A stretch of 58,687 nucleotides of DNA, taken from the NCBI GenBank assembly GCA_049684675.1, contig JBAVGF010000308.1, positions 1 through 58,687 on the forward strand. The letters run 5' to 3'. Both the position numbers and the translations under genes were made by a program. The notes below the pieces were generated by a model. It did no database searches. It saw only the letters and a list, made by a program, of their open reading frames with translations, and was not told where the DNA came from. Within the stretch, counting starts at the first letter, position 1, and the number at the start of each line of letters is the position of its first letter. Shown in pieces: positions 31,175-50,302 of this stretch. The DNA comes from Thermodesulfobacteriota bacterium (GTDB taxonomy: Bacteria; Desulfobacterota; BSN033; UBA1163).

Positions 31175-31642
31175 ATGGGCGGCCTGTTTAAACCTATCAT
31201 CCTTGCTTTCTGTTGCCATTGGTGAAGCTATGCAGGTGCTGATCTCGCCGGTTCGGCGAGGCTAAAATACGCTGCTAATGTCTTGCCTATTCGTGTCATG
31301 TGCAGTGGGAGAATATCTCCTCACTTCATCCTCAAGGCTTTCCAGGAAGGGGCGGACGGTGTCTTGATAGCGGGCTGCCATATTGGGAGCTGCCATTATG
31401 GAAAGGGTAATTACATCACGGCCAAGAGAGTGGCGGTGATAAAAGACCTCCTTGGATTTGTTGGCCTTTCTCCTAAACGATTGAGGCTGGAATGGATTGC
31501 AACTTCCGAAAGCAATAAGTTTGCTAATGTCGTTAGTGATTTTACCCGGGAGATTAATGAACTCGGTCCTTCCCCTCTGAGGAAGCTGTCCTTAAAGAAA
31601 AAACCGGAGCGAATGAAGGAACAGCTTGCGTCGCAGCCATAA
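31175..31642 (+). CDS. mvhD: MvhD/FlpD-like [2Fe-2S] electron-transfer protein, selenocysteine-containing (U17)
   Basis: ATG 31175 is in the same frame as track ORF 31283..31642, joined through TGA 31223-31225. It reads [80 protein letters not shown], matching the MvhD blocks FCCNWC.Y.GADLAG, RVMCSGR and GCH.GDCHY. No clear RBS. Confidence 0.8.
31223..31260 (+). other. UGA (Sec) codon plus SECIS-like hairpin
   Basis: TGA 31223-31225, then CTCGCCG-GTT-CGGCGAG (7-bp perfect stem) at 31244-31260. Confidence 0.7.
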
Positions 31643-31650
31643 AGGAATCG

Positions 31651-32457
31651 ATGGATAAGACCAGAGAGAAGATGGCGAGAATGTTGGATGAGGCAGTGGT
31701 CTCCGGAATATTGGGCCTGGGACTGAGACATCGTCATCCTGTCCCTTATCTCTTCACGGATTCAGCCTCTTTGAAGGATTGGGTTGTCGGTGAGACCGAA
31801 CGATATCCCATCACTAAAATTCTCATTCGGATCGCAAAAAAACACCCCGACGAAACCTTTGGGGTTGTGGTCCGGGGATGCGAAGGGCGATCCTTGATCG
31901 AGCTTTTTAAAAACCATCAACTTCGCTCCGAGAAGATAAAGGCGATCGGGATCGTTTGCAGTCAAGAATTGGCAAAACGATGTCGGTGTGATCGGCCGTT
32001 TCCTTCGGAGATGGAGGAGGGCGAGCTGGCCAAACCGATAGAAGACCTCTCTGACATTGCGGAGGTTGAGAGCCTTCCAGAGGAAGAGCGATTTCAATAT
32101 TGGATGAAGCAGTTCGGGAAATGTATCAAATGCTATGGATGTCGTAACGTCTGCCCGGCTTGCTTCTGTCCTGTCTGCACATTGGAGGACCCTTCTCTGA
32201 TCAAACCAGGTGGAATGCCTCCCGAAATTCCAATCTTCCATCTCCACAAAGCTTTTCACATGGCTGACCGGTGCATTGATTGTGGCCTCTGTGAGGAAGC
32301 ATGCCCGATGAGTATTCCGGTGAGAAGGCTCTATCGGAGAGTCCGTAAATCGGTGAAGGATCTTTTTGGATATGTCCCGGGTGAAAAGGAGGATGAGAAA
32401 GGTCCTTTGGAGTTTTTGGGAGACGGCAGTTATGAGCTACCCGGCGCTGGAAGGTGA
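31651..32457 (+). CDS. Iron-sulfur protein with two CxxCxxCxxxCP-type clusters (AsrA/FrhB-C-like; putative Fdh electron-transfer subunit), copy 1
   Basis: 268 aa with CIKCYGCRNVCPACFCPVC and CIDCGLCEEACP motifs. It is a paralogue of 47169..47966 (shared blocks ETF.V..RGC.(E/G)R.L.ELFK and FH(L)..A.HM..RCIDCGLCEEACP) and sits in the same position between mvhD and fdhA. Confidence 0.7.
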   Translation: MDKTREKMARMLDEAVVSGILGLGLRHRHPVPYLFTDSASLKDWVVGETERYPITKILIRIAKKHPDETFGVVVRGCEGRSLIELFKNHQLRSEKIKAIGIVCSQELAKRCRCDRPFPSEMEEGELAKPIEDLSDIAEVESLPEEERFQYWMKQFGKCIKCYGCRNVCPACFCPVCTLEDPSLIKPGGMPPEIPIFHLHKAFHMADRCIDCGLCEEACPMSIPVRRLYRRVRKSVKDLFGYVPGEKEDEKGPLEFLGDGSYELPGAGR

Positions 32458-32486
32458 GTTCAAATGTTGAGACGGTTCAACAGGTG

Positions 32487-32640
32487 GGTGGGCATCCAAA
32501 GTTTTAGAGAGCGATCATTACTTAATTTAATGGATAATCATTGTTGTCGGTTGCAGGTGTGTGTGAAAAATATGTCGGGGCTTCTGAACCCATTCATTCG
32601 AAGGTTCCGCTCTAAAACTTTTTCAGCCCACCGCCTTTTT
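32487..32640 (+). repeat. Long-range inverted repeat / structured element between the Fe-S gene and fdhA-1
   Basis: GGTGGGC (32487-32493) and AAAGTTTTAGAG (32498-32509) pair perfectly with CTCTAAAACTTT (32610-32621) and GCCCACC (32626-32632). They enclose ~100 nt and are followed by TTTTT (32636-32640). The arm sequence resembles that of the element at 48008-48173. Confidence 0.55.
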
Positions 32641-32673
32641 CCGGGACCTTTAAATGCAACGGATGGATAAGCC

Positions 32674-34731
32674 ATGCTGAGTTACGAGACCATTCTAACG
32701 ACTTGTACATACTGTGGTTGCGGTTGTGGCCTTCTTCTCGAGGTCCTCGATGGAGAGGTGGTGGGGACTCTCCCGCAAAAGGATCATCCCGTCAGTGAGG
32801 GGAAGCTTTGCATTAAGGGATGGAATGCCCACGAATTCATCCATGATCAGGGAAGACTGAAGGAACCTCTTTTGAGAAAGGACGGCTTGCTGAAAAAGGC
32901 ATCTTGGGAAGAGGCCTTTGATGAAGTCGCTTTTCGCCTCAAGAGAATCAAGGAAGAAAGTGGGTCAGATAGCATCGCAGGTTTGACCTCAGCCAAATGT
33001 ACCAATGAGGAGAACTATCTTTTTCAAAAGTGGATGAGAGCAGTGATCGGGACAAATAATGTGGATCACTGTGCTCGTCTCTGACACTCCTCCACGGTGG
33101 CTGGTCTAGCCAAATCATTTGGAAGCGGGGCCATGACCAATGCGATTCCGGAGCTGGAAGATTCGGACTGTATCTTAATCACAGGGTCTAACACGACAGA
33201 GGCCCATCCTCTTGTGGCGAGCCGGATCTTGAAGGCAAAAGAAAAAGGTGCGAAGTTGATCGTTATCGATCCAAGAAGGACACAAATGGCCCGTTACGCC
33301 GATGTCTTTGTTCGGCAGCGATTAGGCACCGACGTCGCATGGATCAATGGGATCATGCACATCATTCTTAAGGAGGGGTGGGAGAGTAAAGAATTCGTCG
33401 GAGCCCGTACCGAGGGATTCGATGAACTGAAGAGGGAGCTTGAGAACTATCCTCCGGAAAAGGTCGAAGAGATCACCGGTATCTCGAAAACCGATTTGAG
33501 GGAGATTGCTCGAACCTTTGCGAAAGCTAAAAGGGGGAGTATCGTATATGCGATGGGAATCACCCAGCATGTAACGGGAACCGACAATGTTCTCTCTCTT
33601 GCCAATTTGGCAATGCTCACCGGGAACATTGGAAGGCTGAGCACAGGCGTCAATCCCCTTCGGGGTCAGAATAATGTCCAGGGTGCCTGTGACATGGGTG
33701 GGCTTCCCAATGTTTATACGGGGTATCAGAGTGTGGCCGATGAGGGGGTGGCCAAAAAATTTGAGGAGACCTGGAATACGCGTCTTTCGAGGAAACCCGG
33801 TCTCACCATGATGGAGATCTTTCAGGCCATCGATGAAGGAAAAGTAAAGGCACTCTACATCATGGGTGAAAACCCGCTGGTGAGTGACCCGGATCTTCAT
33901 CATGCGGAGAAGATTTTAAAGAAATTGGAACTGCTGGTTGTCCAGGACATCTTCCTCACAGAAACCGCCAAGATCGGCCATGTCGTTCTTCCGGGGGCAA
34001 GCTTTGCAGAGAAGGAAGGAACCTTCACTTCTACGGATCGCAGGGTTCAGAGGGTTAGAAAGGCGATTGAACCGCTGGGAAAAGCGAAACAGGACTGGCA
34101 GATCATTTCCAGTATTGCCCAGAAAATGGGGGCTCGGGGTTTTGAGCATTCTTGCCCTGAGGAAATCTTCGACGAGATGAGAAAGCTTACTCCTATTTAT
34201 CAAGGAATCACATACGAGAAGGTAGAGAAAGATGGAGTTCAATGGCCCTGTCGAACTCCTGAGGACAAGGGAACTTCATTCCTTCACAAAGATCAGTTCT
34301 CAAAAGGTAAAGGATCCTTCTTCCCGGTCCCGTATCGGGAGCCTGCGGAACTGGTCGATGAAGAGTTTCCTTTCTGGCTGACTACAGGAAGGATGGGTTT
34401 CCACTATCATACAAGGACGATGACCGGAGTTTCTCCATCTTTGCAGAAGGAGGCAGAGGAGGGATTTATGGAGATCAATCCCTTCGACGCCACCCGCCTG
34501 GGAGTTCAAGAAGGGGAGCGGGTAAGAGTCATTTCTCGAAGGGGTGAGATTGAGACCAAGGTGACGTTAACGTTCAGCGTTGGTCGAAATGTCGTCTTCA
34601 TTCCCTTCCATTTTGTTGAAAGCGCGGCCAATGCTTTGACGAATAGAGCCTTCGATCCTGTGGCGAAGATCCCTGAATATAAGGTTTGTGCCGTCAAAGT
34701 GGAGAAGATCGAAGAAAGGATAAATGCCTGA
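32674..34731 (+). CDS. fdhA: Formate dehydrogenase catalytic subunit (Mo/W-bis-PGD), selenocysteine-containing, cytoplasmic type, copy 1
   Basis: Track ORFs 32674..33084 and 33097..34731 share one frame and join through TGA 33082-33084. The junction [30 protein letters not shown] matches the FdhH/FdhA CAR(V)UH..SVAG active-site context. N-terminal [4Fe-4S] motif CTYCGCGCG. No twin-arginine signal. Confidence 0.9.
33082..33112 (+). other. UGA (Sec) codon plus SECIS-like hairpin
   Basis: TGA 33082-33084, then TGGCT-GGTCT-AGCCA at 33098-33112. The GGUC-containing loop resembles that of the E. coli fdhF SECIS. Confidence 0.65.
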
Positions 34732-37700
34732 TGTCAAGAGTCGGTGTTTTTGTCTGCCACTGAGGAACGAATATCGCGTCCGTGGTTGACGTGAAGGCAG
34801 TGGTGGAAGCAGTCAAAGAATTTTCAGAGGTGGCTTATGCCACGGACCTCCCCTATACGTGCTCCAGCCAGGGGCAGGGAGTGATCAAGGACGCCATCCA
34901 AAAGCATCGTCTGGATCGAATAGTCGTTTCGTCCTGCAGCCCGAGGATGCATGAGATTACTTTTCAGCGGTGTATCGAAGCCGGAGGACTGAACCGGTAT
35001 CTCTTTGAAATGGCCAATATTCGAGAGCAGGTCTCCTGGGTGACCTTGGATAAAGAAGAGGCGACCCAGAAAGCAATCCGGTTGACAGAGATGGCTATCT
35101 CAAAGGCTTCACAACTTCAATCCCTGACACCGCTGAAATCTCCCGTAGAAAAACGCGTTTTGGTAATCGGAGGAGGTATCTCCGGCATTCAGGCTGCGCT
35201 GGACGTTAGCCTAGCAGGATACAAAGTCACTCTCGTGGAAAAACTTCCAACCCTGGGTGGGCGGATGGCCCAGCTGGAGAAAACTTTTCCGACCCTCGAC
35301 TGCTCTGCCTGAATACTTGCGCCAAGGATGACGGAGTCATCCAACGATGAAAATATTGAGATTCTTACCTACTCTGAAGTGGTCGATGTGAAGGGCTATG
35401 TGGGCAACTTCGATGTGACCATCCGAAAGAAACCCCGTTATGTGGATATGTCCAAATGCACAGCCTGTGCAGATTGTGTCAGCCAGTGTCCGGTCTCCCT
35501 TTCGAGCGAATTCAATCTGGGACTCGGAAAAAGAAAAGCGATCTATCTTCCTTTTCCCCAGGCGGTTCCTCTCAAATATACGATCGACCGACGCGGCACG
35601 CCTCCCTGTGAAGCTTCCTGCCCGATTCACGTCAATGCTCAGGGATACATTGCTCTTATCTCGGCGGGAAAGTTCGAAGAAGCCCTGGCACTGGTTAGGG
35701 AGAAGAATCCATTTCCGGGCATTACGGGTCGAATATGCACCCGTCCTTGCGAGGGAGCTTGCCGGAGAAAGGAAGTGGATGAATCGGTTGCCATTGACGC
35801 CCTGAAGCGTTATCTCTCAGACCATGACGAAAATGGGAAGATCAATGTTCCCATGCCTGAAGAAAATGGGAAGAAAGTAGCTATTGTAGGATCAGGGCCT
35901 ACTGGTTTGCTCGCGGCCCATGACCTGAGAAAGAAGGGTTACGGTGTCACCCTCTTTGAGGCTCTTCCCGTAGCCGGAGGGATGCTTGCCGTTGCCATAC
36001 CTGAATACCGGCTGCCTCGTACGATCCTGAACAAAGAGGTCGAATATCTTCTTGGAATGGGCGTTCAGTTAAAGCTCAATACCCCGATTGGCCCAGGCCT
36101 CTCCTTGAAAGACCTCAAAACTCGGGGGTATCAAGCCATCTTTGTCGCGACAGGGGCCCATCGGAGCAGAAAGCTTGGCCTCGAGGGAGAGAGTGCCCGA
36201 GGTGTCATCCATGCTGTCGATTTTCTAAAAAGAGTGGCTCTTGGTGAATCGGTGAAAGTAGGAGAGAAGGCGATTGTTGTTGGAGGGGGCAACGCAGCGA
36301 TTGATGCAGCGAGGACTGCGCTTCGTCTCGGTTCACGGGAGGTCACAATCGTCTATCGCCGAACCCGCAACGAAATGCCCGCTCAGATCGAGGAGATTGA
36401 AGAAGCCGAAGAGGAAGGAATTAAGATGGAGTATCTCACCGCTCCAACGCGACTGATCGTTGAAGAGGGAGCTGTTCGAGGAATAGAGTGCTGCCGGATG
36501 GAATTGAAGGAACTGGATGAATCCGGCCGACCCAGACCTGTGCCCATTCTTGGCTCTGAGTTTAGAATCGAAGCGGATACGATCATTCCTGCGATCAGCC
36601 AATCGCCTGATCTGTCTTTCCTTTCCGAAACGGATGGTTTCAGGATGTCCCCTTCGGGAACCATTGAAGCCGACGCTCTCACCCTTGAGACGGGTGTGGA
36701 AGGAATCTTTGCGGGGGGCGATCTGGTAACCGGTCCGCAGACATATATCGATGCCATGGCTGCGGGTCGAAAGGCAGCCATCTCCATTGACCGCTACCTC
36801 AAAGGAGAGGATCTGAACGAGGGCCGAGAAAAGGAAGGGACTCAGAAAGATTATATTCAAATCGATGTCGACGGAGTCGAATACCGAGAGAGGGCCTCCG
36901 TGGTGACCCTCCCCCCCGAAAGGAGAAGAAGAAGCTTTGACGAGGTGAACGCCGGCCTTCGAGAAGACGACGTGATCCGGGAGGCAGAACGCTGCCTCAA
37001 TTGCGGAGGATGCTCAGCCTGCGGAGAATGTTCAAAGTACTGTCAGCCCAAGGCCGTGGATTATGAGATGAAGGAGGAATGGGTTGAACGTAAAGTCGGA
37101 GCCATTATCGTTGCGACCGGCTTTACCCAGTTCGACCTTCGGATGTACGGAGAATATGGCGGAGGCCGCTTCAAGGATGTGATTACAGGTCTTCATCTGG
37201 AAAGAATGCTCGATAGTACGGGGCCTACCGGAGGCCATGTGATTCGGCCTTCCAATGGCAAGGAGGCGAAGCATATCGTCTTCATTCAGTGTGTCGGATC
37301 CAGGGACGAATCAAAAGGCGTTCCCTACTGTTCCAGGGTCTGCTGTATGTACACAGCGAAACAGACGATCCTTCTCAAAGACCATTTTCCAGAGAGCCAA
37401 TCGTATGTTTTCTATATTGATATACGGGCAAGCGGGAAGAATTACGAAGAGTTTGTCAAGCGAGCCCAACGGGAGTATGGAACGATCTATATTCGGGGGA
37501 GGGTTTCAAAAATTTATGAAAAAGGTGACAAGCTCATTGTCCGAGGGGTAGATACCTTAGTGGGAAAACAGGTGGAGGTTGAGGCCGACTTAGTCGTATT
37601 GGCCACCGCTGTCGTTCCCCAGGCCAGTGCCTCAGAGTTGGCGAGGCTCTTGAACATTCCCTCTGATCAATATGGTTTTTATACGGAGTGCCATCCCAAA

Positions 37701-38120
37701 CTTCAACCTGTCGAGGTGGTGACCAAAGGGATCTTCCTGACCGGTTCCTGTCAGTTTCCAAAAGATATTCCTGAATCCATCGCCACGACAGGTGCTGCCT
37801 CGGTCAGAGCCTGTGAGATTCTCTCCAAGGACGAATTGGTTCTCGACCCGAGAATTGCTTTTGTGGATGAGGAGGTCTGTAGCGGTTGTCTCAATTGTGT
37901 TGGAGTCTGCCCCTTCAAAGCCATCCAACCCAAAGAAGTTGAGGGGAAGATCGTTGCGTACGTCCTCCCTACGCTCTGTCACGGCTGCGGAAATTGTGCG
38001 GCCACCTGCCGGACAAGCGCTGCCAATGTCCAGGGGTTTACCGACGACCAGATCAACGCCCAAGTGGCTTCGGTCTTCGAGGTTCTCAGAAAGGAGCACC
38101 TCCTTGAGCTATCTGAATGA
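34731..38120 (+). CDS. hdrA: HdrA-like flavoprotein with an inserted GltD/NfnB-like NAD(P)H-oxidoreductase module (HdrL-type), two selenocysteines
   Basis: ATG 34731 overlaps the fdhA stop (TGATG). The gene uses one frame through TGA 34761-34763 and TGA 35310-35312 into track ORFs 34782.. and 35328..38120 (1129 codons). It reads MSRVGVFVCH-U-GTNIASVVD... and ...EKTFPTLDCSA-U-ILAPRM, matching the HdrA blocks IGV.ICHCG.NI and [15 protein letters not shown]. The GltD-like insert is at about 35589-36985. Confidence 0.85.
34761..34794 (+). other. UGA (Sec) codon plus SECIS-like hairpin
   Basis: TGA 34761-34763, then a 7-bp stem TCGCGTC/GACGTGA (one G-U pair) with loop CGTGGTT at 34774-34794. Confidence 0.55.
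35310..35342 (+). other. UGA (Sec) codon plus SECIS-like hairpin
   Basis: TGA 35310-35312, then GGATGAC-GGA-GTCATCC (7-bp perfect stem) at 35326-35342. Confidence 0.7.
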
Positions 38121-38661
38121 AAAGGGGATTCACGGCTTTAAGGATCGGATACTGAAGCTGAGCGGTGAGGATGTCTCCCGGTGCACCCAGTGCGGAAAAT
38201 GCACTGCCGGATGTCCGATCTCTCCAGAGATGGATCTTCAGCCGAATCAGGTGATTCATCTGATCCAAATCAATGACCCGGAAACCGTGCTCCGATGCCG
38301 AACGATATGGCTCTGCGCTTCTTGTCAGACCTGCTCTGCTCGATGTCCGGACGAGATCGATGTCGCACAAATTATGGATTCACTGAGAAAATTGGCAGTG
38401 GAAGAAAAGGTTTCAATCGGTGAGGGAAACGGAATGAAATTTAATGAGTTCTTTCTCGATTCGATTCGGAAGAGGGGGCGTGTCAACGAAATGGAGATAT
38501 TATTGCGTTATAATCTGGCCACCCATCAGCCCTTCAAAGATTCTCATCTGGGACTGGTGATGCTCGCCAAAAGGAAGTTAAGTTTTTCAAACCGTAAGAT
38601 TAAGGGAGTGGGTCTGATCAAAGAGATCTTTAAGAATAGTAGGCGATTCATTAAGGAATAG
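38104..38661 (+). CDS. hdrC: HdrC-like iron-sulfur subunit
   Basis: CTQCGKCTAGCP and CASCQTCSARCP motifs. Probable TTG start at 38104 with AAGGAG 7 nt upstream, overlapping the hdrA end. The upstream ~104 codons of track ORF 37792..38661 lie inside hdrA. Confidence 0.8.
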   Translation: MSYLNEKGIHGFKDRILKLSGEDVSRCTQCGKCTAGCPISPEMDLQPNQVIHLIQINDPETVLRCRTIWLCASCQTCSARCPDEIDVAQIMDSLRKLAVEEKVSIGEGNGMKFNEFFLDSIRKRGRVNEMEILLRYNLATHQPFKDSHLGLVMLAKRKLSFSNRKIKGVGLIKEIFKNSRRFIKE

Positions 38662-38665
38662 CGCC

Positions 38666-39523
38666 ATGCGGGTAGGATATTATCCAGGTTGTTCCCTTGA
38701 GAGCAGTGCAAAAGAGTTTGATCTCTCCCTTAGGGCGATCTTTGAGGTGATGGAGATATCTCTGCAGGAGATCCCCGACTGGAACTGTTGTGGAGCAAGT
38801 CCGGCTCACTCCCTCAATGAAGAACTTAGTATGGCCTTGCCTTACAGGAACTTGGTGAAGGCTGAAGAGGCCGGTTTAAGGAAGATTCTATCTCCTTGCC
38901 CTGCCTGCTATAGCCATATGAGACACACCCATGAAAAGGTAGCACTGGACCGTTCTCTTGGAGATCGACTTCAGCAGATTGTGGGAAAGGGATATCAAGG
39001 AAGTTCGGAAGCGAAGCATCTTTTGGACTTCATCAAGGAGGACGTCGGACTGGGACAATTGAAGTCGAGCATGAAGCGTTCTCTCAAGGGATTGAGAGTA
39101 GCCAGCTATTACGGGTGTCTGACACGGCTGCCCGGAGTAAACTTAGACGATGTTGAGAATCCGGTGATCCTAGATGAGATCGTGGGAGTCCTTGGAGGAA
39201 AATCACTTGACTGGTCTCATAAGACGGAATGTTGTGGGGCAAGTCTTTCATTGACACAGACAGAGATTGCCCTCAGGCTGGTCCGCTCTATTTTAGAAGC
39301 AGCTGAAGAGAAAGGAGCAGAGTGCATTGCCGTTGTTTGTCCCCTTTGCCAATCCAACTTAGATGCCCGACAGGGCGTCGTCTATAAGAACAAAATGCCC
39401 ATCTTCTACATCACGCAGTTAATCGGGTTAGCTCAGGGACTTGGCTATGCCAAGCTGGGGCTGGACGGACTGATCGTAAGCCCCCGTGACCTCCTTCGGA
39501 AAAGAGGGATCATCGAAAAATAG
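38666..39523 (+). CDS. hdrB: HdrB-like subunit (two CCG domains)
   Basis: 285 aa with YYPGCSL...NCCGA and YYGCLTR...ECCGA repeats, characteristic of the duplicated CCG domain. Confidence 0.85.
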   Translation: MRVGYYPGCSLESSAKEFDLSLRAIFEVMEISLQEIPDWNCCGASPAHSLNEELSMALPYRNLVKAEEAGLRKILSPCPACYSHMRHTHEKVALDRSLGDRLQQIVGKGYQGSSEAKHLLDFIKEDVGLGQLKSSMKRSLKGLRVASYYGCLTRLPGVNLDDVENPVILDEIVGVLGGKSLDWSHKTECCGASLSLTQTEIALRLVRSILEAAEEKGAECIAVVCPLCQSNLDARQGVVYKNKMPIFYITQLIGLAQGLGYAKLGLDGLIVSPRDLLRKRGIIEK

Positions 39524-40824: not shown

Positions 40825-42597
40825 ATGTTCCTCAGGGTTTCTTTATACATTTCGTCGGTCATTTTTCTGCTCGGTCTGATTTATAAGGTGGCCGGCTGGT
40901 TCCGATACAGGATCGGGATAAGGGCAGGAGAGATTTCAACCTTCACAAGGGTTCTTTCTGCCGTCAAGGGAATCCTCTCCACACTTTTCAGCGCCAAAAT
41001 TCTTACTCTGTTGAAAGTCTTTGTTCTCGATGTACTGCTTCAATTCAGGATATTGAGGGAGGACTTTCTCAGATGGATCATGCACATTTTTATCTACGGC
41101 GGTTTCATGCTTCTCCTCCTGATGCATGCCTTGGACAAAACCATCACCGTTGCCCTATGGAAAAACTATTACCCCACGGTCAATCCCTTTATGTTTTTGA
41201 GAGATCTATTCGGCGCCATGGTCATCGTTGGAGTGATCATTGCGATTTATCGCCGATTCATCTTGAAGGTGCCCCGGATGTTCAGCAATGCGATGGATGT
41301 TTATGCCATCCTCATCGTGGCCATCATTATGTTTTCCGGTATCTTTTTAGAAGCCACCAAAATGGTTGCCTATTCCGATTATAAGAGGATGGTGGATGAA
41401 TATTCTGGTTTGAGTGATCCCCAAGAGCTCAAGTCTTTGGAAGCCTATTGGGTGAAGGAATTCGGAGTCGTTTCCCCAAATTTGAAAGGGCCCTTTGATG
41501 AAAAGATATTAGGGAAAGGCAAAAAATTGCATCAATCGAGTTGTGAAGGGTGCCATGCCCGGCCCCAGTGGGCATTTACCGGTTATGGAGCGGCCAAGAT
41601 CATCAGCCCTATCGGTCTTGGCATTGACAGGGCCCGTCTGCCCAGTGTGCTTTGGTACATCCATGTCTTAGCCTGTTTGGCAGGTCTTGCTTATCTTCCC
41701 TTCAGCAAAATGTTCCATATCTTTGCCAGTTCGATAAGCCTCCTTGCCAATGGAGTAATCGGAAAAGAAAAATTGGCTCCAGCGAACAGAGCCACTCTCC
41801 AAGCGATGGAGCTGGATGCCTGCACGCATTGCGGAACCTGCAGTTTGAGGTGTTCGGTGATCATGGCCTTTGAAGAAATTGCGAATATGAATATTTTCCC
41901 TTCTGAAAAGATCGCCTCCCTCCAGGCGCTTGCCTCTGGTAAGAAATTGAGCCCGCAGGAGCTGGGGCATATTCAAGAGGGGGTCTATCTCTGTTCCAAT
42001 TGCTACCGTTGCACGGTGGTCTGTCCGGCAGGGATCAACCTTCAGGATTTGTGGTTTAGCGTCAGAGAGACTCTTCTTCAGAAGGGATACCCAGAAGTTC
42101 TCGTTCTCTCTCCGCTCTCTTTCTACCGTGGTTTAATGAAGGAAGAAACGGTTCCGAGAGATTACGAGAAGCCCTTGATCCAGGCGAGAGAGGCCATTGC
42201 CGCTCGATGTGATTTGATGAAGAGGAAGGATAAGGTCTTGCCTCTGACGTCCACGAATAGACAATTACAGAGCGGGCTCAATCTTTCTGCCCAGGCAAAG
42301 ACCTTCTCGGCTTGCTTTGGCTGTCAGACCTGTACGAACGTCTGTCCTGTGGTGGGCAATTATGAAAATCCTCAGGAAGCCCTTGGGCTGCTGCCTCACC
42401 AAATCATGCATGCGGCTGGTTTGGGCTTGAGGGATCTTGCCTTTGGGTCAAATATGCTTTGGGATTGTTTGACCTGTTATCAGTGTCAGGAACAATGTCC
42501 GCAAGGGGTCCACGTCACGGATGTGCTTTACGAACTAAAGAATTTGGCGGTCAAACGAGCGAGGGAGGAGATCCTGCAGCCCGTGGGAAGAAAATAA
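40825..42597 (+). CDS. Membrane cytochrome-b-like (NarI/DsrM/HdrE-like) domain fused to two HdrC-like 2x[4Fe-4S] modules, with a CXXCH motif in the large extracytoplasmic loop
   Basis: 590 aa with about six TM helices in aa 1-300. His pairs lie inside TM helices (MHIFIYGGFMLLLLMH; IHVLACLAGLAYLPFSKMFH). CEGCH is at aa 240-244 (nt 41542-41556). These are followed by CTHCGTCSLRCS / CSNCYRCTVVCP and CFGCQTCTNVCP / CLTCYQCQEQCP. Confidence 0.7.
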   Translation: MFLRVSLYISSVIFLLGLIYKVAGWFRYRIGIRAGEISTFTRVLSAVKGILSTLFSAKILTLLKVFVLDVLLQFRILREDFLRWIMHIFIYGGFMLLLLMHALDKTITVALWKNYYPTVNPFMFLRDLFGAMVIVGVIIAIYRRFILKVPRMFSNAMDVYAILIVAIIMFSGIFLEATKMVAYSDYKRMVDEYSGLSDPQELKSLEAYWVKEFGVVSPNLKGPFDEKILGKGKKLHQSSCEGCHARPQWAFTGYGAAKIISPIGLGIDRARLPSVLWYIHVLACLAGLAYLPFSKMFHIFASSISLLANGVIGKEKLAPANRATLQAMELDACTHCGTCSLRCSVIMAFEEIANMNIFPSEKIASLQALASGKKLSPQELGHIQEGVYLCSNCYRCTVVCPAGINLQDLWFSVRETLLQKGYPEVLVLSPLSFYRGLMKEETVPRDYEKPLIQAREAIAARCDLMKRKDKVLPLTSTNRQLQSGLNLSAQAKTFSACFGCQTCTNVCPVVGNYENPQEALGLLPHQIMHAAGLGLRDLAFGSNMLWDCLTCYQCQEQCPQGVHVTDVLYELKNLAVKRAREEILQPVGRK

Positions 42598-43526
42598 TGG
42601 AATTTGCCTTATTTCTCGGTTGTACCATCCCAGCCCGTCTCAATCAGTACGAATCTTCCTCTAGGGCTGTTCTCAAAAAGCTCGGGGTGGGATTGGTCGA
42701 TATCCGGGAATTTAACTGCTGCGGATATCCCCTGAGGAACATCGACTTCAAAGTATTCCTCCTCTCTTCGGCGAGAAATCTGGCCCTGGCCGAAAAGAAG
42801 AATCTGGATGTGATGACGTTGTGCCAGTGTTGCTACGGCAGCCTCAAAAAGGCAGACTTTCTTATGAAGGAGAATGCTACCTTAAAGAAAGAAGTCAATA
42901 CGACCCTCGAGAAAGAGGGTCTGAAATACGAGGGAAGGAGTGAGGTGAAACACCTCCTCTCCGTTCTTCACAAAGGAATAGGCATCGAATCGATCAAAGG
43001 GAAGATGTCAACGACCTTTAAGGGGCTTCGGATCGCCACCCATTACGGATGCCATGCCCTAAGGCCCAGCCAGGTTGTGGAATTTGATAATCCCCTTGCT
43101 CCTACCCTGTTTGATGAACTGGTTGAAGCGACCGGTGCTGAGAGCGTTGAATGGCAAATGAAACTCGAATGCTGCGGGGCTCCCTTATGGGGAATCAATG
43201 ATCAGCTGTCCATGGATTTGACTTTAAAAAAACTGAAGGATGGCAGGAAATCGGGTGCGGATTATATCTGTGCGGCCTGTCCATACTGCCACATTCAGTT
43301 CGACAAGGTCCAGAAGATGATACTCTCTCAAAGGAATGTGAACCACCCTCTTCCCTCCATTCTCTATACACAGCTTCTTGGCCTGAGCATGGGCGTCGAC
43401 AAGAAGGCCCTTGGATTGGAGATGAACGAGATTCGTATCGGCGGGATTGAAGAATTATTAAAGAGTGAAAGAGATTTAGCCGAGGAGAAAGAAACCAAGA
43501 AGGAGAAAGAATCAACAAAGCAGTAG
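42597..43526 (+). CDS. HdrB-like CCG-domain protein
   Basis: The real start MEFALFLGCTIP at 42597 overlaps the upstream stop (TAATG). FNCCGYP and LECCGAP CCG motifs. Lys/Glu-rich C-terminal tail. The track's start at 42459 is an out-of-context extension. Confidence 0.8.
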   Translation: MEFALFLGCTIPARLNQYESSSRAVLKKLGVGLVDIREFNCCGYPLRNIDFKVFLLSSARNLALAEKKNLDVMTLCQCCYGSLKKADFLMKENATLKKEVNTTLEKEGLKYEGRSEVKHLLSVLHKGIGIESIKGKMSTTFKGLRIATHYGCHALRPSQVVEFDNPLAPTLFDELVEATGAESVEWQMKLECCGAPLWGINDQLSMDLTLKKLKDGRKSGADYICAACPYCHIQFDKVQKMILSQRNVNHPLPSILYTQLLGLSMGVDKKALGLEMNEIRIGGIEELLKSERDLAEEKETKKEKESTKQ

Positions 43527-43556
43527 TTTTTTCGATCGTTGAAGGCAGGAGTCAAG

Positions 43557-46500
43557 ATGACACAGAATAGGATCGGTTCAGTCATGGTGGTCGGTGGGGG
43601 CATCGTCGGGATGCAGGCGGCATTGGATCTTGCCAATTCCGGCTATTATGTCTACCTTGTGGAGAGGTCCTCCTCCATCGGTGGTTTGATGTCCCAATTG
43701 GACAAGACCTTCCCCACCAATGACTGCTCCATGTGAATCCTCTCGCCCAAACTGGTCGAGGTCGGCCGGCATCTCAACATTGAGCTTCTCACCCTCTCCG
43801 AGGTGATAAGCGTTTCCGGGGAAGAGGGAAATTTTGAAGTAAAAGTGGTTCAATCCCCGCGCTATGTGGACATGGCGAAATGCATTGCCTGCGGTCTCTG
43901 CGCTGAAAAATGCCCGACCAAAATCGACAATGAATATGATGCGGGCCTTGCTAAGCGAAAATCGATCCATGTCAAGTACGCCCAGGCCGTTCCTCTGAAG
44001 TATACCATTGACCCGGCAAATTGTATCTTTCTTACCAAAGGGAGATGTAAGGTCTGCGAGAAACTCTGTCCTGCAAAGGCCGTCAATTTCGAAGATAAGG
44101 AAAGAGAATTGACCTTCCAGGTCGGGGCCATCATCCTCTCCACCGGATGCGAGGTTTACGATCCGAAGGTTTATGATGTCTATGGTTACCAGCGCTCCCC
44201 CAATATCGTTACGAGCCTTGAATTTGAAAGAATGCTTTCTGCTTCCGGACCCCTTGGCGGACATCTGGTAAGGTCTTCTGATAAAAAGGAACCCAAAAAA
44301 ATCGCCTGGATTCAGTGTGTGGGTTCGAGGGATATGCACGAAGGAGCGAAGGCTTACTGTTCGGCAGTTTGCTGTACCTACGCCATCAAAGAAGCTCTGG
44401 TTGCAAAAGAGCATGCGAAGGGGGGACTCGATACTGCCATCTTTTACATTGATATGCGTACCTTTGGCAAGGATTTTGAGAGATACTATAACCGGGCCAG
44501 GGAAGAAGCCGGTGTCCGTTTCATCAAATCAAGAATCACCCAGATTTTTCCGATGAGTGATACAGGGGATCTTCTCATTCGCTATACAGACGAGGCCCAG
44601 AAAAGAATTGAAGAAACATTTGATATGGTGGTTTTATCTGTAGGAATTGGCGTCTCCAAGGAAGCGGTAGACTTGGCCAAAAGATTGGATATTGACATTA
44701 ACCACCATCATTTTGCTTCCACGGGCAGCTTTGAGCCTGTTTCAACCTCAAAGCCTGGCATCTTTGCTTCGGGAGCCTTCCAAGCCCCCCAAGATATTCC
44801 TTCCGCCGTAATCGAGTCGAGCGCCTCTGCTGCTATGGCAGAAAGTATCTTAGCCGATTCCCGTTGGACCATGACAAAGAAAAAGGAAATCCCCGAAGAG
44901 ATCGATGTCCGCGGCCAATTCCCCAGAATTGGCGTATTTGTCTGCAAGTGCGGGACAAATATCGCTGGTGTCTTAGATGTATCCGCCATTGCCGAATATG
45001 CTCGGACCCTGCCAGGTGTTATTTTTGCGCAGGAGAATCTCTTTAGCTGCTCTCAGGATACTCAAGAGAAGATGGCCCAGATCATTAAGGAGGAGAAGCT
45101 GAACCGGGTGGTGGTTGCTGCCTGCAGTCCCCTGACCCATGAAGTTCTCTTTCAGGAGACCGTGGTCAATGCAGGCATCAATAAGTACCTCTTTGAGATG
45201 GCGAATATTCGCAATCAATGTTCCTGGGTGCACGGCGGGGATGCAAAGGCCGGCACAGAGAAGGCTAAGGATCTTGTGCGCATGGCTGTGGCGAAAGTCG
45301 CTTTATTCGAACCCATGTCTGATCCCCGAATCACCATTAACCAGACAGCCCTGGTCATCGGCGGTGGGCTTGCAGGCATGAGCGCTGCCAAAAACCTGGC
45401 GGCGCAAGGCTTCCGTACCTGTTTAATTGAAAAGGAAGGGGTCTTGGGAGGTCAGGCTCGAAATTTATATCAAACCTGGAAGGGGGAGAATGTTCAACAA
45501 AATCTGGCGAAACTCGCTCAGGAGGTTCAATCTAATCCGAAAATCGATGTCTACTTGAACACCGAATTGAAACAGGTGGAAGGATTTGTGGGCAATTTTG
45601 AAGCCACCATTCAAACGGATGGAAAAGAGAAGGTATTGGAGCACGGTATCGCCATTGTTGCAACGGGTGCTTCGGAGCTAAAACCCGATCAATATCTCTA
45701 CGGAAAGGATCCCCGTGTTTTGACCAGACTGGAGTTGGACGGTAGATTTATAGAAAATGACGCCTCCCTGGGAAAGATCCGTTCAGCTGTTTTTATTCTG
45801 TGTGTGGGATCGCGAATCAAGGAGAGGCCCTACTGCTCCGAGGTGTGTTGTACCCACTCTGTCGTGAGTGCACTCAAACTGAAAGAGATCAACCCCGATA
45901 TGGATGTCTTCATCGTTTACAGGGATATGCGGACCTTTGGACTGTTCGAGGATCTTTATCGTGAAGCCCGGGCCAAAGGAATATTTTTCATCCATTATGA
46001 TGAACATAAAGAGTTAAAAGTCGCGAAGGATCAGAATGATCTTCAGGTTCTCTTCACCTCCCGTGTGCTGAACCGCGAGATGGAGATTCGGCCGGACTTA
46101 TTGATCCTGGCCACGGCCATCGTGCCACCGAAGGAGAACTCTATTTCAAACTTGTTCAAGGTTCCAGTGAATAATGATGGTTTTTTTGCTGAAGCCCATG
46201 TCAAACTTCGACCCATCGATTTTGCCACGGACGGGGTTTTTCTCTGTGGCCTCGCCCACTCTCCGAAGCCCATGGATGATTCGATTGCCCAGGGTCTGGG
46301 CGCTGCGGCGCGGGCTGTGACGCTCCTCTCTCAGAAGGAGATGTACGGCAATGCCATTGTGGCCTTCATCAATCCGGAAAGCTGTGTGGGCTGCGAGGGA
46401 TGCTTAAAGGTCTGTCCCTATGAAGCCATTCGATATTTAGAAGATAAAGAAATCTGCGAGGTCAACGAGGTGATTTGTAAAGGGTGTGGGGCCTGTGCGG

Positions 46501-46586
46501 CTACGTGTCAATCGGCTAGCGCACAGCTCAAGCGTTTCACCAGCAAACAGATCTACGCTCAGATCGACAAGGCCATGGCTGTCTAA
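43557..46586 (+). CDS. hdrA: Tandem HdrA-like flavoprotein (two HdrA units in one polypeptide), one selenocysteine
   Basis: ATG 43557 has AGGAG 6 nt upstream. It shares a frame with track ORF 43803..46586 through TGA 43734-43736. It reads [17 protein letters not shown]...[18 protein letters not shown]. The first unit has CVGSRD..YCSAVCC. The second unit starts at [15 protein letters not shown] and has [26 protein letters not shown] and a C-terminal 2x[4Fe-4S]. Confidence 0.85.
43734..43760 (+). other. UGA (Sec) codon plus SECIS-like hairpin
   Basis: TGA 43734-43736, then CTCGCC-CAAACT-GG(T)CGAG (6 bp with one bulge) at 43742-43760. Confidence 0.5.
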
Positions 46587-46613
46587 ACAAAAAAACGGAA
46601 AAGGGAGTTTTTG

Positions 46614-47045
46614 ATGTCAGAGGAGTTTCGACCCAAGATCATTGCTTTTTTGTGCACCTGGTGAGCTTATGCTGCCGCTGACCTGGCTGGGGTCAGTAGA
46701 ATGCAGTATTCGACATCGATCCGGGTCATTCGGGTGATGTGTGCCGGGACGATATCACCTCATTACGTCCTGAAGGCCTTGCAGGCGGGGGCCGACGGCG
46801 TCTTTGTGGCTGGCTGACGTCTCGGCGAATGTCATTACCAGTCTGGTAATGTGATGGCCAACAAAAGGATGACCTTTTTGAAGAAGTTGCTGGAGTTTTC
46901 TGGCATTCACCCGGAGCGCCTTAGAACGAGATGGGTCTCTTCTGCCGAGGCGGTGGAATTCGTCCATGAGGTTTCAGCGTTTGCGGAGGAGATTAAAAAG
47001 TTGGGGCCGAATCCTTTGAAAGTGAAAGCAAAGGAAGCCGCTTAA
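46614..47045 (+). CDS. mvhD: MvhD/FlpD-like protein with two selenocysteines (U17, U68)
   Basis: ATG 46614 has AAGGGAG about 7 nt upstream. It shares a frame with track ORF 46851..47045 through TGA 46662-46664 and TGA 46815-46817. It reads [79 protein letters not shown]. Confidence 0.85.
46662..46696 (+). other. UGA (Sec) codon plus SECIS-like hairpin
   Basis: TGA 46662-46664, then CTGACC-TGGCTGG-GGTCAG at 46678-46696. Confidence 0.65.
46815..46851 (+). other. UGA (Sec) codon plus SECIS-like hairpin
   Basis: TGA 46815-46817, then CATTACCA-GTC-TGGTAATG (8-bp perfect stem) at 46833-46851. Confidence 0.75.
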
Positions 47046-47052
47046 TAATTAA

Positions 47053-47136
47053 TAAGGTTAAGGTCGAGGTTCAGGCTGAGATTGGGGTAAATTGAAGGTC
47101 GAGGTTGAGGTGATGAATGATTTCCGCTTAACCTTA
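47053..47136 (+). repeat. Intergenic insert with a 10-bp inverted repeat and a 12-nt direct repeat
   Basis: TAAGGTTAAG (47053-47062) is the reverse complement of CTTAACCTTA (47127-47136). AAGGTCGAGGTT occurs at 47060-47071 and 47095-47106. The equivalent mvhD / Fe-S gene gap in cluster 1 is only 8 nt. Confidence 0.5.
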
Positions 47137-47168
47137 GCTTGATCCTAAACCTTAAGTGAAATGAAGGA

Positions 47169-47966
47169 ATGATGGGCACGAAGATTAAAGAAGCTGTTCA
47201 AGCTCTCCTGATGGAAGGGAAGATCAAGGGCTTTCTGGGTCTAATGGAAGAGAATGGCAACATCATGCCGCACCTCTTCTGCGATCCCAAGGAGCTTGAT
47301 CACCTCTCTGTGGGTGATTGGAAGAAAGCGGGCGACGCCCGTTATCCCCTGAATCAATTGATGATTCGATTAACCACGGAACATCCCGAGGAGACGTTTG
47401 CGGTTCTTATTCGGGGTTGTGATGAAAGGGGACTCAAAGAACTCTTCAAGTGGAAACAGTTGAACGAAGAGAAAGTCATCCTCGTAGGACTGGGTTGTCC
47501 GGATGAGCTGGCCAAGGCTTGTGAATGCGAAAAACCATTTCCGGATAGTCTGATAGAGGGTCCAAAGGGAGCAAAGGCAGACAGCGAGAAAGTGGCTCAG
47601 GTCGAGGCCATGGACCTGGACACAAGACTCCAGTTCTGGAAAGCGGAGTTTGACCGGTGCATCAAGTGTTTCGGCTGCCGCAATGTCTGTCCGATGTGCT
47701 TCTGCAACGAATGTTCCCTGGAGGAAGATCAATTGGTCGGGACGGGAGAGATCCCCCCTGCCAACCCGACCTTCCATCTGGCCCGGGCCATTCACATGGT
47801 GGGTCGCTGCATTGATTGCGGTTTGTGTGAGGAAGCTTGTCCGGCGGATATTCCTCTCAGAACGCTTTATAAGAAGGTGGCAGAGATTATCCACAAGGAA
47901 TTCGGATATAAGACGGGCTTCAGCGTGGATGAAAAATCGCCCTTCAATATCATTGAGGTGAGATAA
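47169..47966 (+). CDS. Iron-sulfur protein with two CxxCxxCxxxCP-type clusters, copy 2 (paralogue of 31651..32457)
   Basis: 265 aa with CIKCFGCRNVCPMCFCNEC and CIDCGLCEEACP motifs, in the same position between mvhD and fdhA. Confidence 0.7.
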   Translation: MMGTKIKEAVQALLMEGKIKGFLGLMEENGNIMPHLFCDPKELDHLSVGDWKKAGDARYPLNQLMIRLTTEHPEETFAVLIRGCDERGLKELFKWKQLNEEKVILVGLGCPDELAKACECEKPFPDSLIEGPKGAKADSEKVAQVEAMDLDTRLQFWKAEFDRCIKCFGCRNVCPMCFCNECSLEEDQLVGTGEIPPANPTFHLARAIHMVGRCIDCGLCEEACPADIPLRTLYKKVAEIIHKEFGYKTGFSVDEKSPFNIIEVR

Positions 47967-48007
47967 CAATTCGGTTTTTCGAAATGGAACGGAATAAAAT
48001 CTCTTTT

Positions 48008-48173
48008 CCCCGCCAAAGGCGGGGCTTCCAAATTTTTAGAATGTGGGTTTTTTTATATTTTATAGTATTGAAATAAAGGAATGAATGAGACGCTGGATTA
48101 CTATTGAGGCAGTTTGAATGACTCGGTAAAAGGTTACCGCCCTAAAAATTTTCCAGTCCCGTCTTTGGCGGGA
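48008..48173 (+). repeat. Inverted-repeat element between the Fe-S gene and fdhA-2; each arm contains a CCCGCC/GGCGGG hairpin
   Basis: Left arm CCCCGCCAAAGGCGGGGCTTCCAAATTTTTAG (48008-48039). Right arm CCTAAAAATTTTCCAGTCCCGTCTTTGGCGGGA (48141-48173). AAATTTTTAG/CTAAAAATTT pair across a ~100-nt AT-rich centre. Confidence 0.55.
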
Positions 48174-48232
48174 TCGGTGTACCGTTGGGGACATTTTGCG
48201 AAGCGTTAAGATGTACGAGGTGAAATAGCTTC

Positions 48233-50302
48233 ATGGAATTCAAGACGGTGTTAACCACTTGCCCCTATTGCGGGTGCGGATGCGGATTGCTCCTGGAGGT
48301 CCTCGACGGAAAGATCGTGGGGACGCTACCTTCCAAAACCAGTCCTGTGAACCGGGGGAAATTGTGTGTTAAAGGCTGGACCGTCCATGAATTTGTCACG
48401 AGCCCCAACCGATTGACCCAACCCATGGTGCGGAAAGGCGATGCCCTACAAGAGGCCTCGTGGAACGATGCGCTCAATCTTGCGGCGGCACGCCTGAAAG
48501 AAATTAAAGAAAAATACGGTCCGGATAGCATTGGTGTCTTAACCTCTGCCAAGTGTACCAATGAGGAAAACTATGTTTTACAGAAGTTTGCCCGGGCCGC
48601 CATCGGGACGAATAACATCGACCACTGTGCCCGTCTCTGACACTCCTCCACGGTGGCCGGGCTGGCCGCAGCACTTGGCAGCGGGGCAATGACCAACTCC
48701 ATTGAAGAGATTGAAGGGGCGGATTGTATCTTGATCATCGGCTCCAATACTTCCGTAGCCCATCCCCTCATCGCCACCCGTGTCTATCGAGCCAAAGCCA
48801 GAGGAGCCAAAATAATCGTCGCAGATCCTCGCAGGATACCGATTGTCCTTCAAAGTGATTTACACCTTCGTCAGAATCTCGGAACGGACGTGGCACTGAT
48901 CAACGGTCTGATGCACATCATTCTGAAGAATGGCTGGCAAGACCAGGCCTTTATCGATGAGAGGACAGAAAACTTTGAGCCACTGAAAAAGGTGGTTGAG
49001 AATTATCCTCCTGAAAAGGTATCGGAAATCACAGGGATCCCGACGGCCGATCTGGAAAAGGCAGCAGAATACTATGCCAAGGCTGAGCGGGCGAGCATTC
49101 TCTACACCATGGGCATCACCCAGCACATCACGGGCGTGGACAATGTCAAGACCCTTGCCAATCTGGCGATGCTCACCGGAAATCTCGGGAAGGAATCGAC
49201 AGGCATCAATCCTCTCCGGGGACAAAACAATGTCCAGGGTGCCTGTGACATGGGCGGGTTGCCGAATGTTTATACGGGTTACCAGGCAGTGACCGACCCT
49301 GCGGTTCGACAGAAATTCGAGGAGGCATGGGGAGCTAAACTTTCAGACAAGATTGGGTTGACCGCAACGGAAATGTTTCCTGCTGTCCTCGACGGGAAAA
49401 TGAAAGCCGTCGTCATCCTGGGTGAGAATCCCATGGTGAGCGATGCCGATTGCCGTCACATAGAAAAGGCGCTCAAGGCCCTCGATTTTCTCTTAGTGAT
49501 CGATATCTTCAATACTCCCACTTCGGATCTGGCCCATGTGGTTTTGCCCGGAGCCGCTTTTGCAGAGAAAGAGGGGACGTTTAGCAACACGGAAAGAAGG
49601 GTTCAGTTACTCCGAAAAGCAGTGGAGCCTCCCGGGGCGTCGAAACCAGACTGGCAGATCATCCAGGAACTGTCGAGCCGTTTTGGTTATGCCATAGATT
49701 ATGCTTCGCCCCGTGCTATCATGGAGGAGATTGCAAAGCTTACCCCATCTTATGGCGGCATCACTTATGACCGACTCCAAGGCGATGGGTTGCAGTGGCC
49801 CTGTCCCAACGCCGAACATCCCGGAACCAAATTTTTGCATCAGGGACGATTTTCCAGAGGGAAGGGCTTGTTTACCGCAATTGAATACAAACCCGCCGCG
49901 GAGACGGCGGATGAAGAATATCCCTTCCAACTCACCACCGGAAGGGTTTATGTCCATTACCACACGGGGACGATGACGAGAAACTCTCCTTCGCTGGAAC
50001 GGGAGATCAGTGAGTGTTTTCTTGAAATACATCCTGAGGACGCTGCTGAAATGAAAGTGGCGGATGGTGATTGGGTGGTCATCGCATCAAGGCGCGGGTC
50101 CGTCTCATCCCGTGTGAAGGTGACGGATGCCTCAGGGAGAAAAACAGTGTTCATGCCTTTCCACTTCCTTGAAAGCAGAGCCAATATTTTGACCAACCCC
50201 GCGTTGGATCCCATTGCCAAGATCCCGGAATTTAAGGTCTGCGCCGTAAGAATCGAAAAGATGGGAACAGAATCGAAGCCTTCTCCTGCCTCGGCCAGTT
50301 GA
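48233..50302 (+). CDS. fdhA: Formate dehydrogenase catalytic subunit (Mo/W-bis-PGD), selenocysteine-containing, cytoplasmic type, copy 2
   Basis: Track ORFs 48233..48640 and 48653..50302 share one frame and join through TGA 48638-48640. The junction reads [30 protein letters not shown]. N-terminal CPYCGCGCG motif. By eye about 60% identical to copy 1. No Tat signal. Confidence 0.9.
48638..48669 (+). other. UGA (Sec) codon plus SECIS-like hairpin
   Basis: TGA 48638-48640, then GTGGCC-GGGCT-GGCCGC at 48653-48669, at the same position as the copy-1 hairpin but with compensatory base changes. Confidence 0.65.

Follow-up and report, generated by a model that had tools for sequence, protein, structure and literature searches.

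Eight probable selenocysteine codons with in-frame SECIS-like hairpins in two formate dehydrogenase–MvhD–Hdr gene clusters of an uncultured Thermodesulfobacteriota bacterium

Six redox genes in a 58,687-nucleotide contig from a Thermodesulfobacteriota bacterium (JBAVGF010000308.1 of assembly GCA_049684675.1, analysed over its full length and referred to as the window) contain a total of eight in-frame UGA codons, which we consider, with a probability of about 0.93, to be genuine selenocysteine (Sec) codons equipped with bacterial selenocysteine insertion sequence (SECIS) elements. By the standard bacterial mechanism, the complex of SelB, GTP and Sec-tRNA(Sec) would be recruited by a SECIS hairpin located inside the reading frame, 10–17 nt past each UGA. 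The six genes make up two paralogous HdrA/HdrL–MvhD–FdhB–FdhA(–HdrBC) clusters of a known type, most likely encoding cytoplasmic formate-dehydrogenase-linked flavin-based electron bifurcating or confurcating complexes, and the host is an uncultured member of the Thermodesulfobacteriota related to the Syntrophaceae. The phenomenon itself is already well described and is recognised here in a new, uncultured lineage.

All six genes are encoded on the plus strand. In the first cluster, mvhD1 (31175..31642, 155 amino acids (aa)) carries a UGA at 31223-31225 (CCHW-U-SY), corresponding to MvhD site a and equivalent to Cys16 of methanogen MvhD. The catalytic subunit of a cytoplasmic FdhH/FdhF-type formate dehydrogenase is encoded by fdhA1 (32674..34731, 685 aa), with its UGA at 33082-33084 (HCARL-U-HSS), followed by hdrL (34731..38120, 1129 aa), an HdrA with an inserted NfnB/GltD-like NAD(P)H module and two UGAs, one in the N-terminal Fe-S domain (34761-34763, VCH-U-G) and one at the position equivalent to Cys/Sec197 (35310-35312, DCSA-U-ILAP). 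The second cluster contains hdrA2 (43557..46586, 1009 aa), a fused double HdrA with a UGA in its first module (43734-43736, NDCSM-U-ILSP), mvhD2 (46614..47045, 143 aa) with UGAs at both site a (46662-46664, LCTW-U-AY) and site b (46815-46817, VAG-U-RLGECHY), and fdhA2 (48233..50302, 689 aa), whose UGA at 48638-48640 (HCARL-U-HSS) occupies the same column as that of fdhA1.

All eight interruptions were checked and are TGA codons, each in frame with the open stretches on either side, and no TAA or TAG is found inside the six genes. Read-through yields six complete proteins, namely MvhD and FdhA (two each), HdrL and a fused HdrA. Both small proteins become full-length members of the FlpD/MvhD family (Pfam PF02662, E about 1e-52; 5e-52 for mvhD1 and 2e-52 for mvhD2), while both FdhA proteins contain the Pfam domains Molybdop_Fe4S4, Molybdopterin and Molydop_binding. 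The hdrL and hdrA2 products consist of HdrA-like flavoprotein and ferredoxin domains according to Pfam. Only one of these two large proteins carries an inserted Fer4_20/Pyr_redox_2 (NfnB/GltD-like) module and was therefore named HdrL. Pfam domains run across the UGAs, and homology is found on both sides of all eight sites. Cysteine (Cys) codons make up about 3% of the six genes (102 of 3,685 codons), and by our own arithmetic the probability that eight random nonsense codons are all TGA and all located at Cys columns is of the order of 1e-16.

Alignment of the read-through proteins, with X placed at each TGA, to chains of solved structures put every TGA on a conserved Cys or known Sec column, as had been proposed from the sequence alone. 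In mvhD2, both X residues align with Cys of 5odc_D, 9sw2_D and 8rvu_F (motifs CCNW-C-TYGG and GG-C-HLGDCHY). For HdrL, X11 and X197 correspond to Cys13 (VCH-C-G) and Cys197 (DCSI-C-ILAP) of 5odc_A, respectively. In FdhA, the X coincides with a Sec residue in Escherichia coli FdhH (1aa6) and 9t1s_L, and with a Cys residue in 7qv7_S and 7bkb_D. HdrA selenoproteins are recognised by a Sec that replaces the second Cys in the motif D-C-S-x-C, as is the case in hdrL, and the same motif is present in hdrA2 (NDCSM-U); of the two positions used for the MvhD/FrhD/VhuD selenoproteins, mvhD1 has site a only and mvhD2 has sites a and b. The original prediction also described the affected residues as redox or metal-ligand cysteines. 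A ligand role is documented for FdhA (E. coli FdhH Sec140) and for HdrA Cys197 (PMC9012536), and MvhD Cys16 is described as a conserved non-cluster cysteine (PMC13580544). Within the open papers, statements on cluster-ligand roles were found only for Cys197, the Cys202/205 pair and MvhD Cys16.

Each of the eight UGAs is followed by a 6–8 bp stem starting 10–17 nt after the codon, with the loop at 17–25 nt. The three hairpins quoted in the original prediction, at 31244-31260, 35326-35342 and 46833-46851, are all present. Hairpins were then scored for SECIS geometry by criteria reportedly given by Zhang and Gladyshev (2005), namely a stem of at least 4 bp and an apical loop that starts 16–37 nt after the codon and has a G as its first or second base. 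On this score, every site ranked within the top 0.5–8% when compared with 3,647 control codons (p=1.4e-7). All hairpins are on the plus strand. Those of mvhD1 (31243..31261, UCUCGCCG-GUU-CGGCGAGG, loop 25 nt after the UGA) and mvhD2 site a (46677..46697, GCUGACCU-GGCUG-GGGUCAGU) each have -11.6 kcal/mol and are in the top 0.5% of controls. The other non-fdhA hairpins are that of hdrA2 (43752..43769, CUGGUCG-AGGU-CGGCCGG, -9.1 kcal/mol, top 1.6%), the second hairpin of hdrL (35326..35342, GGAUGAC-GGA-GUCAUCC, -8.1 kcal/mol), the N-terminal hairpin of hdrL (34774..34794, UCGCGUC-CGUGGUU-GACGUGA, -7.6 kcal/mol, top 4%) and that of mvhD2 site b (46833..46851, CAUUACCA-GUC-UGGUAAUG, -7.1 kcal/mol, top 4.5%). 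The two fdhA helices are located at 33095..33115, with a GGUCU apical loop starting 18 nt after the UGA, and at 48651..48671, with a GGCC-GGGCU-GGCC core. At permissive thresholds, the Rfam family SECIS_3 (RF01989) matches the two fdhA sites and no others, full-length and beginning 3 nt before the UGA (fdhA1: 33079–33137, 45.7 bits, E=9e-8; fdhA2: 48635–48693, 48.1 bits, E=1e-10 on a short stretch). The fdhA elements thus resemble SECIS_3 without being formal members by the Rfam cut-off.

The window derives from a metagenome, and homologous loci were compared with it. In total, 109 loci were fetched, 80 of which (L030-L109) were added by a metagenome scan anchored on MvhD2, and the codon census was based on 107 loci from outside the window's own population, the latter being also represented by a 98%-identical public contig (L001). 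The closest reference genomes are metagenome-assembled genomes of Thermodesulfobacteriota/Syntrophaceae with HdrL identities of 91–79%, the 91% relative being JAPVTA01. Over five columns, TGA was found 194 times and Cys (TGC/TGT) 256 times, and codons other than these are limited to divergent paralogues and, in fused HdrA, to the second module. Scoring a hairpin as present when it showed SECIS geometry and -5 kcal/mol or better, its occurrence follows the codon at every column: at FdhA (TGA 46, Cys 3) it accompanies 100% of TGA and 33% of Cys sites, at HdrA-197 (TGA 41, Cys 35) 100% and 6%, at MvhD-a (TGA 48, Cys 69) 98% and 25%, at MvhD-b (TGA 54, Cys 65) 81% and 3%, and at HdrA-N (TGA 5, Cys 84) 80% and 21%. 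Overall, the hairpin tracks the TGA state with p=5e-58 (Mann-Whitney, without phylogenetic correction).

The interchange of Sec and Cys can also be followed within individual genes. At site a of mvhD1, L003–L007 have TGA whereas L008–L016 have Cys, and the 197-type column of hdrA2 is TGA in at least 20 metagenomic loci. All four combinations of Cys (C) and Sec (U) at MvhD sites a and b exist (CC 51, UU 37, CU 17, UC 12), and across these four states each hairpin goes with its own UGA, indicating that the two sites are independent. Double-Sec MvhD is common in this set, accounting for 37 of 118 MvhD genes, all with in-frame hairpins, the two SECIS elements being 153 nt apart.

The hairpins are under RNA-level selection in Sec-type orthologues. 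Third-position entropy over codons +4 to +14 amounts to 0.36–0.44 bits, compared with 1.06–1.22 in the rest of these genes. No drop is seen in Cys-type homologues, where the entropy is 1.17–1.52 over the hairpin codons and 1.14–1.34 elsewhere. For the second hdrL UGA, 12 of 13 orthologues, with protein identities as low as 77%, have the hairpin unchanged, and synonymous entropy is 0 over codons +5 to +10, while for the hdrA2 hairpin this value is about 0 over codons +6 to +9. Distant hdrA2 orthologues have a shifted hairpin, GGAUGYC-GGUC-GRCAUCC, with a U-A/C-G swap. The mvhD2 site a hairpin is near-invariant in 38 orthologues with varying flanking third positions, and the site b hairpin is missing from essentially all 65 Cys-type homologues. 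In fdhA, third positions of the hairpin vary, but do so jointly: among the distinct sequences, the loop-closing pair is C-G 20 times, A-U 14 times and U-A 7 times, without a single unpaired case, giving a covariation score of 0.268 for both fdhA helices (alignment A1), compared with 0.111 in shuffles (reached by 0 of 500) and at most 0.064 in slid controls. A similar pattern is seen for the outer pair at MvhD-b (alignment A2; C-G 24, A-U 10; score 0.075 vs 0.027, 0 of 500), and the mvhD1 stem contains a compensatory C-G to U-A change in L004. Geometry, UGA-tracking, synonymous constraint and compensatory changes bear out the suggestion of a bacterial in-frame SECIS layout.

A number of points weigh against this interpretation. 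The insertion of selenium is something we infer for this organism. Neither selA, selB and selD nor tRNA-Sec was found in the window or in the fetched loci, which are genome fragments and thus uninformative in this respect; specifically, the window contains no tRNA of any kind, its 36 Pfam-scanned open reading frames (ORFs) include no selA, selB or selD, and no tRNA-Sec was found in the 109 fetched loci. The selABCD genes would have to be encoded elsewhere in the genome. The SECIS_3 scores of 45.7 and 48.1 bits lie below the gathering score of 63, nothing in the window is matched at Rfam gathering thresholds, and even at permissive thresholds no Rfam family covers the six non-fdhA sites in the HdrA and MvhD genes. 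The hairpin-versus-codon statistics ignore shared ancestry. Further, the mere presence of a downstream hairpin, on which the original prediction relied, is not distinctive: the minimum folding energy of the 63 nt after the UGAs does not differ from that after all codons or all Cys codons of the same genes (p=0.19 and 0.22, respectively), and a comparable hairpin also follows 51 of the 568 open-frame TGAs of the window. Separation from background is provided by SECIS-specific geometry and comparative data only, not by plain folding energy.

The N-terminal UGA of hdrL, at codon 11, is the weakest of the eight sites. It could be the stop codon of a short upstream ORF, with HdrL starting downstream, for example at the GTG at 34782, and lacking its first cysteines, which would leave seven Sec sites. 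A start codon ten codons upstream of the UGA and a GTG shortly after it are compatible with such an arrangement, the site is the rarest in the census, the hairpin is partly kept in some Cys orthologues and is thus less diagnostic, and a 2026 review table lists a single Sec for HdrA (PMC13188914). However, the ten codons before it are in frame and can be aligned to the conserved N-terminus of solved HdrA, RIGVYVCHCG, the TGA is located exactly at the second Cys of V-C-H-C-G, and a truncated protein would lack the V-C-H-C motif that is conserved in the N-terminal Fe-S domain. TGA and hairpin are both kept in the five closest relatives (L003–L007). We therefore regard a downstream start as quite unlikely and retain Sec at this position. 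The site is confined to the window's population and these five relatives, a small clade in which HdrL has gained a second Sec in its N-terminal domain. In Cys orthologues of about 67% identity (L009:4196, L010:7625, L012:8580), the hairpin persists in a weakened form, which may represent either a fossil SECIS or a hairpin that was already present and facilitated the change from Cys to Sec.

Selenium-free read-through, in which near-cognate or suppressor tRNAs insert Cys or Trp and the hairpins only slow the ribosome or release-factor access, would be consistent with Sec machinery not being observed in the window and the fetched fragments. Read-through of Sec codons without selenium is known under selenium limitation in other systems. 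Yet the hairpins have the geometry of SelB-binding SECIS elements, including G-containing apical loops, and those of fdhA match SECIS_3. Sec is further established in all of these protein families and occupies exactly the same columns in solved structures (PMC13518236 for HdrA Sec197), and related Syntrophaceae carry SelD and large selenoproteomes (PMC1794560). Read-through without selenium is thus very unlikely compared with Sec insertion.

A third explanation, that the TGAs are real stops and the genes are pseudogenes or products of assembly or sequencing errors, is hardly credible. Assembly errors do occur in this population, as shown by additional frame breaks of L001 in hdrL and the CCG-domain gene, and gene callers list the pieces as separate genes. 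Neither would account for eight interruptions that are exclusively TGA and exclusively at Cys/Sec columns, for the recurrence of TGA at 194 homologous sites in independent assemblies and genomes, for frame and protein conservation continuing past every TGA, or for the extra RNA-level constraint just downstream. An alternative genetic code with UGA read as sense everywhere (Trp in table 4 or Gly in table 25), which has nothing more in its favour than the existence of in-frame TGAs, is practically negligible given that TGA terminates 12 of the 32 Pfam-supported genes of the window, including three of the six at issue, that in-frame TGAs fall on Cys columns only and never on Trp or Gly, and that a window-wide UGA-plus-hairpin scan returned only off-frame or short-ORF hits and no further credible in-frame TGA. 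Two minus-strand pairs of same-frame ORFs joined by TGA (23334 and 24534) were considered as extra Sec genes and rejected; these TGAs are real stops, since the flanking ORFs are unrelated neighbours (PEGA/TPR, PD40, TPR).

FdhA, HdrA and FrhD/MvhD with Sec rank among the most abundant selenoprotein families of bacteria, and the statement that they are established in related bacteria is in agreement with published catalogues (PMC1794560, PMC2702500, PMC1976440, PMC13188914). Syntrophobacter fumaroxidans encodes 31 selenoproteins (FdhA 6, FrhD 8, HdrA 7), partly in operons with four selenoprotein genes, and Syntrophus aciditrophicus encodes SelD and 19 selenoproteins (FdhA 4, FrhD 4, HdrA 4) (PMC1794560). 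Eight Sec codons within 19 kb is a high number, but the density has precedents in these two organisms (PMC1794560). In Desulfobacterium autotrophicum HRM2, which has 31 selenoproteins, Sec-HdrA, -HdrL, -MvhD and -FdhA are encoded in hdrA/hdrL–mvhD–fdhB–fdhA loci (PMC2702500). An HdrBCA–MvhD–FdhBA arrangement is known from Desulfobacula and marine Chloroflexi (PMC5736913), and the proteomes of S. fumaroxidans are rich in HdrABC/HdrL complexes (PMC5947623).

The window clusters share families and gene order, in addition to hdrBC, with loci V–VIII of D. autotrophicum HRM2 and with loci of S. fumaroxidans, S. aciditrophicus and Desulfobacula toluolica. These Deltaproteobacteria likewise have Sec in HdrA/HdrL, MvhD and FdhA, their HdrL is a fusion of HdrA with an NAD(P)H module, and fused hdrA–hdrA genes also occur (PMC2702500, PMC1794560, PMC5947623, PMC5736913). 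In comparison, the window differs by its uncultured lineage, the second, N-terminal Sec of HdrL and the two Sec residues of MvhD2. The fdhA genes are of the FdhH/FdhF-like cytoplasmic type, with an Fe4S4 domain from residue 6 and no signal peptide, and share with E. coli fdhF the UGA at the Mo/W-ligand column and an apical loop GG(U/G)CU starting 18 nt after it. However, the outer helix of the SECIS_3 model is poorly matched in the window elements, which remain below its gathering score, and the window genes are part of an Hdr–MvhD cluster instead of a formate-hydrogenlyase context.

Archaeal SECIS elements are located in untranslated regions. In contrast to this layout, every UGA of the window has its own hairpin inside the ORF, where synonymous sites are constrained. 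With respect to protein columns, the closest parallel to the MvhD and HdrA sites is found in Methanococcales, where VhuD/FrhD with two Sec and HdrA with Sec197 use the same two MvhD columns and the same CxxU column (PMC13188914, PMC13518236). The functional neighbourhood is also the same, MvhD passing electrons from hydrogenase or Fdh to the flavin adenine dinucleotide (FAD) of HdrA. In 2007, Zhang and Gladyshev described bacterial FrhD/MvhD homologues with only one of the two archaeal Sec residues (PMC1976440), and the 2026 review cites multi-Sec FrhD/VhuD for archaea only and tabulates one Sec (CxxU) for HdrA (PMC13188914). No earlier report of a double-Sec bacterial MvhD or of a second HdrL Sec was found in the searchable literature, which is incomplete, and both look like under-reported details and not like discoveries.

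As for function, the Sec of FdhA would serve as Mo/W ligand. The Sec of HdrA/HdrL would take the place of Cys197, which belongs to the CxxC pair adjacent to the bifurcating FAD, and MvhD site b and the N-terminal HdrL site would represent further conserved cysteines (G-C-x-x-G-x-C-H-Y and V-C-H-C-G). Sec typically substitutes for redox-active and not for purely structural cysteines. HdrA Cys197 has been described as a ligand of the N-terminal [4Fe-4S] cluster of the partner protomer (PMC9012536), and for Sec197 of Methanococcus maripaludis HdrA a selenylsulfide relay beside the FAD has been discussed as a possibility (PMC13518236). MvhD Cys16 and the HdrA CxxC pair are conserved non-cluster cysteines between the [2Fe-2S] cluster of MvhD and the FAD whose role was left open (PMC13580544), and two 2026 structural papers leave this electron transfer step explicitly unresolved (PMC13518236, PMC13580544). 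The Sec sites of the window concentrate at this junction. Based on this concentration, the four MvhD states, the double-Sec bacterial MvhD and the second HdrL Sec, it may be speculated that the Sec/Cys mosaic marks the "extra" cysteines as a chalcogen-based electron relay. We consider this idea tentative and on balance rather improbable, but if true, the mosaic would supply natural variants for testing the relay.

The claim that standard gene callers would break up such genes is borne out by the near-identical contig L001, where calls end at every TGA (giving pieces of 176, 59, 58 and 135 aa), and by protein databases. In a collection of 5.8 billion proteins, the Sec-type MvhD2 clade is represented by truncated calls only, with a best full-length match of about 60% identity, and the MvhD2 relatives P0001 and P0037 are N-terminally truncated and begin after the first UGA. 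At the DNA level, MvhD2 orthologues of 85–96% identity are common in metagenomes. Mis-calling of Sec-HdrA by gene finders has been noted before (PMC12054007). As these genes are listed as fragments, metabolic reconstructions for syntrophic and sulfate-reducing Thermodesulfobacteriota would under-count Hdr/Fdh bifurcating complexes unless Sec is modelled. The present analysis is mainly of value for annotation quality and offers a minor lead with regard to MvhD and HdrL with several Sec residues. It also extends the known Fdh–MvhD–Hdr clusters by a selenium-rich pair from an uncultured lineage resembling the Syntrophaceae, which would imply a strong selenium dependence of its formate and electron-bifurcation metabolism. 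The additional frame breaks of L001 are located at L001:2433-5226 (hdrL) and L001:9704-10634 (CCG-domain gene); they are absent from the window and are probably assembly indels.

The neighbouring genes in the two clusters are likewise on the plus strand. Between mvhD1 and fdhA1, a 4Fe-4S protein with Fer4 families (31651..32457) is referred to as an FdhB-like electron-transfer subunit based on the HdrA/L–MvhD–FdhB–FdhA layout in the literature (PMC2702500, PMC5736913). Downstream of hdrL are an hdrC-like gene (38230-38661, Fer4) and an hdrB-like gene (38666-39523, PF02754 CCG domains), the starts of which were taken from the L001 gene calls. According to Pfam, hdrA2 is preceded by an Fe-S/membrane protein (40825-42597) and a CCG-domain HdrB/D-like protein (about 42597-43526), and a second FdhB-like 4Fe-4S protein (47169..47966) lies between mvhD2 and fdhA2. 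The two modules of the fused hdrA2 product are complementary: module 1 has the Sec197-type site and no N-terminal Fe-S domain, while in module 2 the N-terminal domain is present and carries Cys (VCKCG), and the 197 column is Asn (AAT). Fused HdrA of anaerobic methanotrophic (ANME) archaea and Moorella contain the same complementary modules in reversed order (PMC9012536).

Both fdhA genes are preceded by long leaders (32458–32673, about 215 nt, and 47967–48232, about 265 nt). They were considered as a conserved regulatory RNA and rejected as such, being mutually dissimilar and conserved only as far as near-identical relatives. Neither leader has an Rfam match, and a 68-aa ORF in the fdhA1 leader (32464–32670) looks non-coding. 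A gene of the FrhB/FdhB type (F420 hydrogenase/dehydrogenase beta subunit family, 50573-51721, minus strand) is convergent to fdhA2. A supposed frameshifted CoA-ligase gene at 13.6–15.6 kb was found to be unsupported, the downstream ORFs having no Pfam match. Genes for an acyl-CoA dehydrogenase and a 3-hydroxyacyl-CoA dehydrogenase, together with a CoA-ligase-like gene, lie upstream of the first cluster (27970-30938, minus strand, and 13648-15060). As genomic context, they are consistent with a syntroph that oxidises fatty acids or aromatic acids and would dispose of reducing equivalents via Fdh–Hdr complexes.

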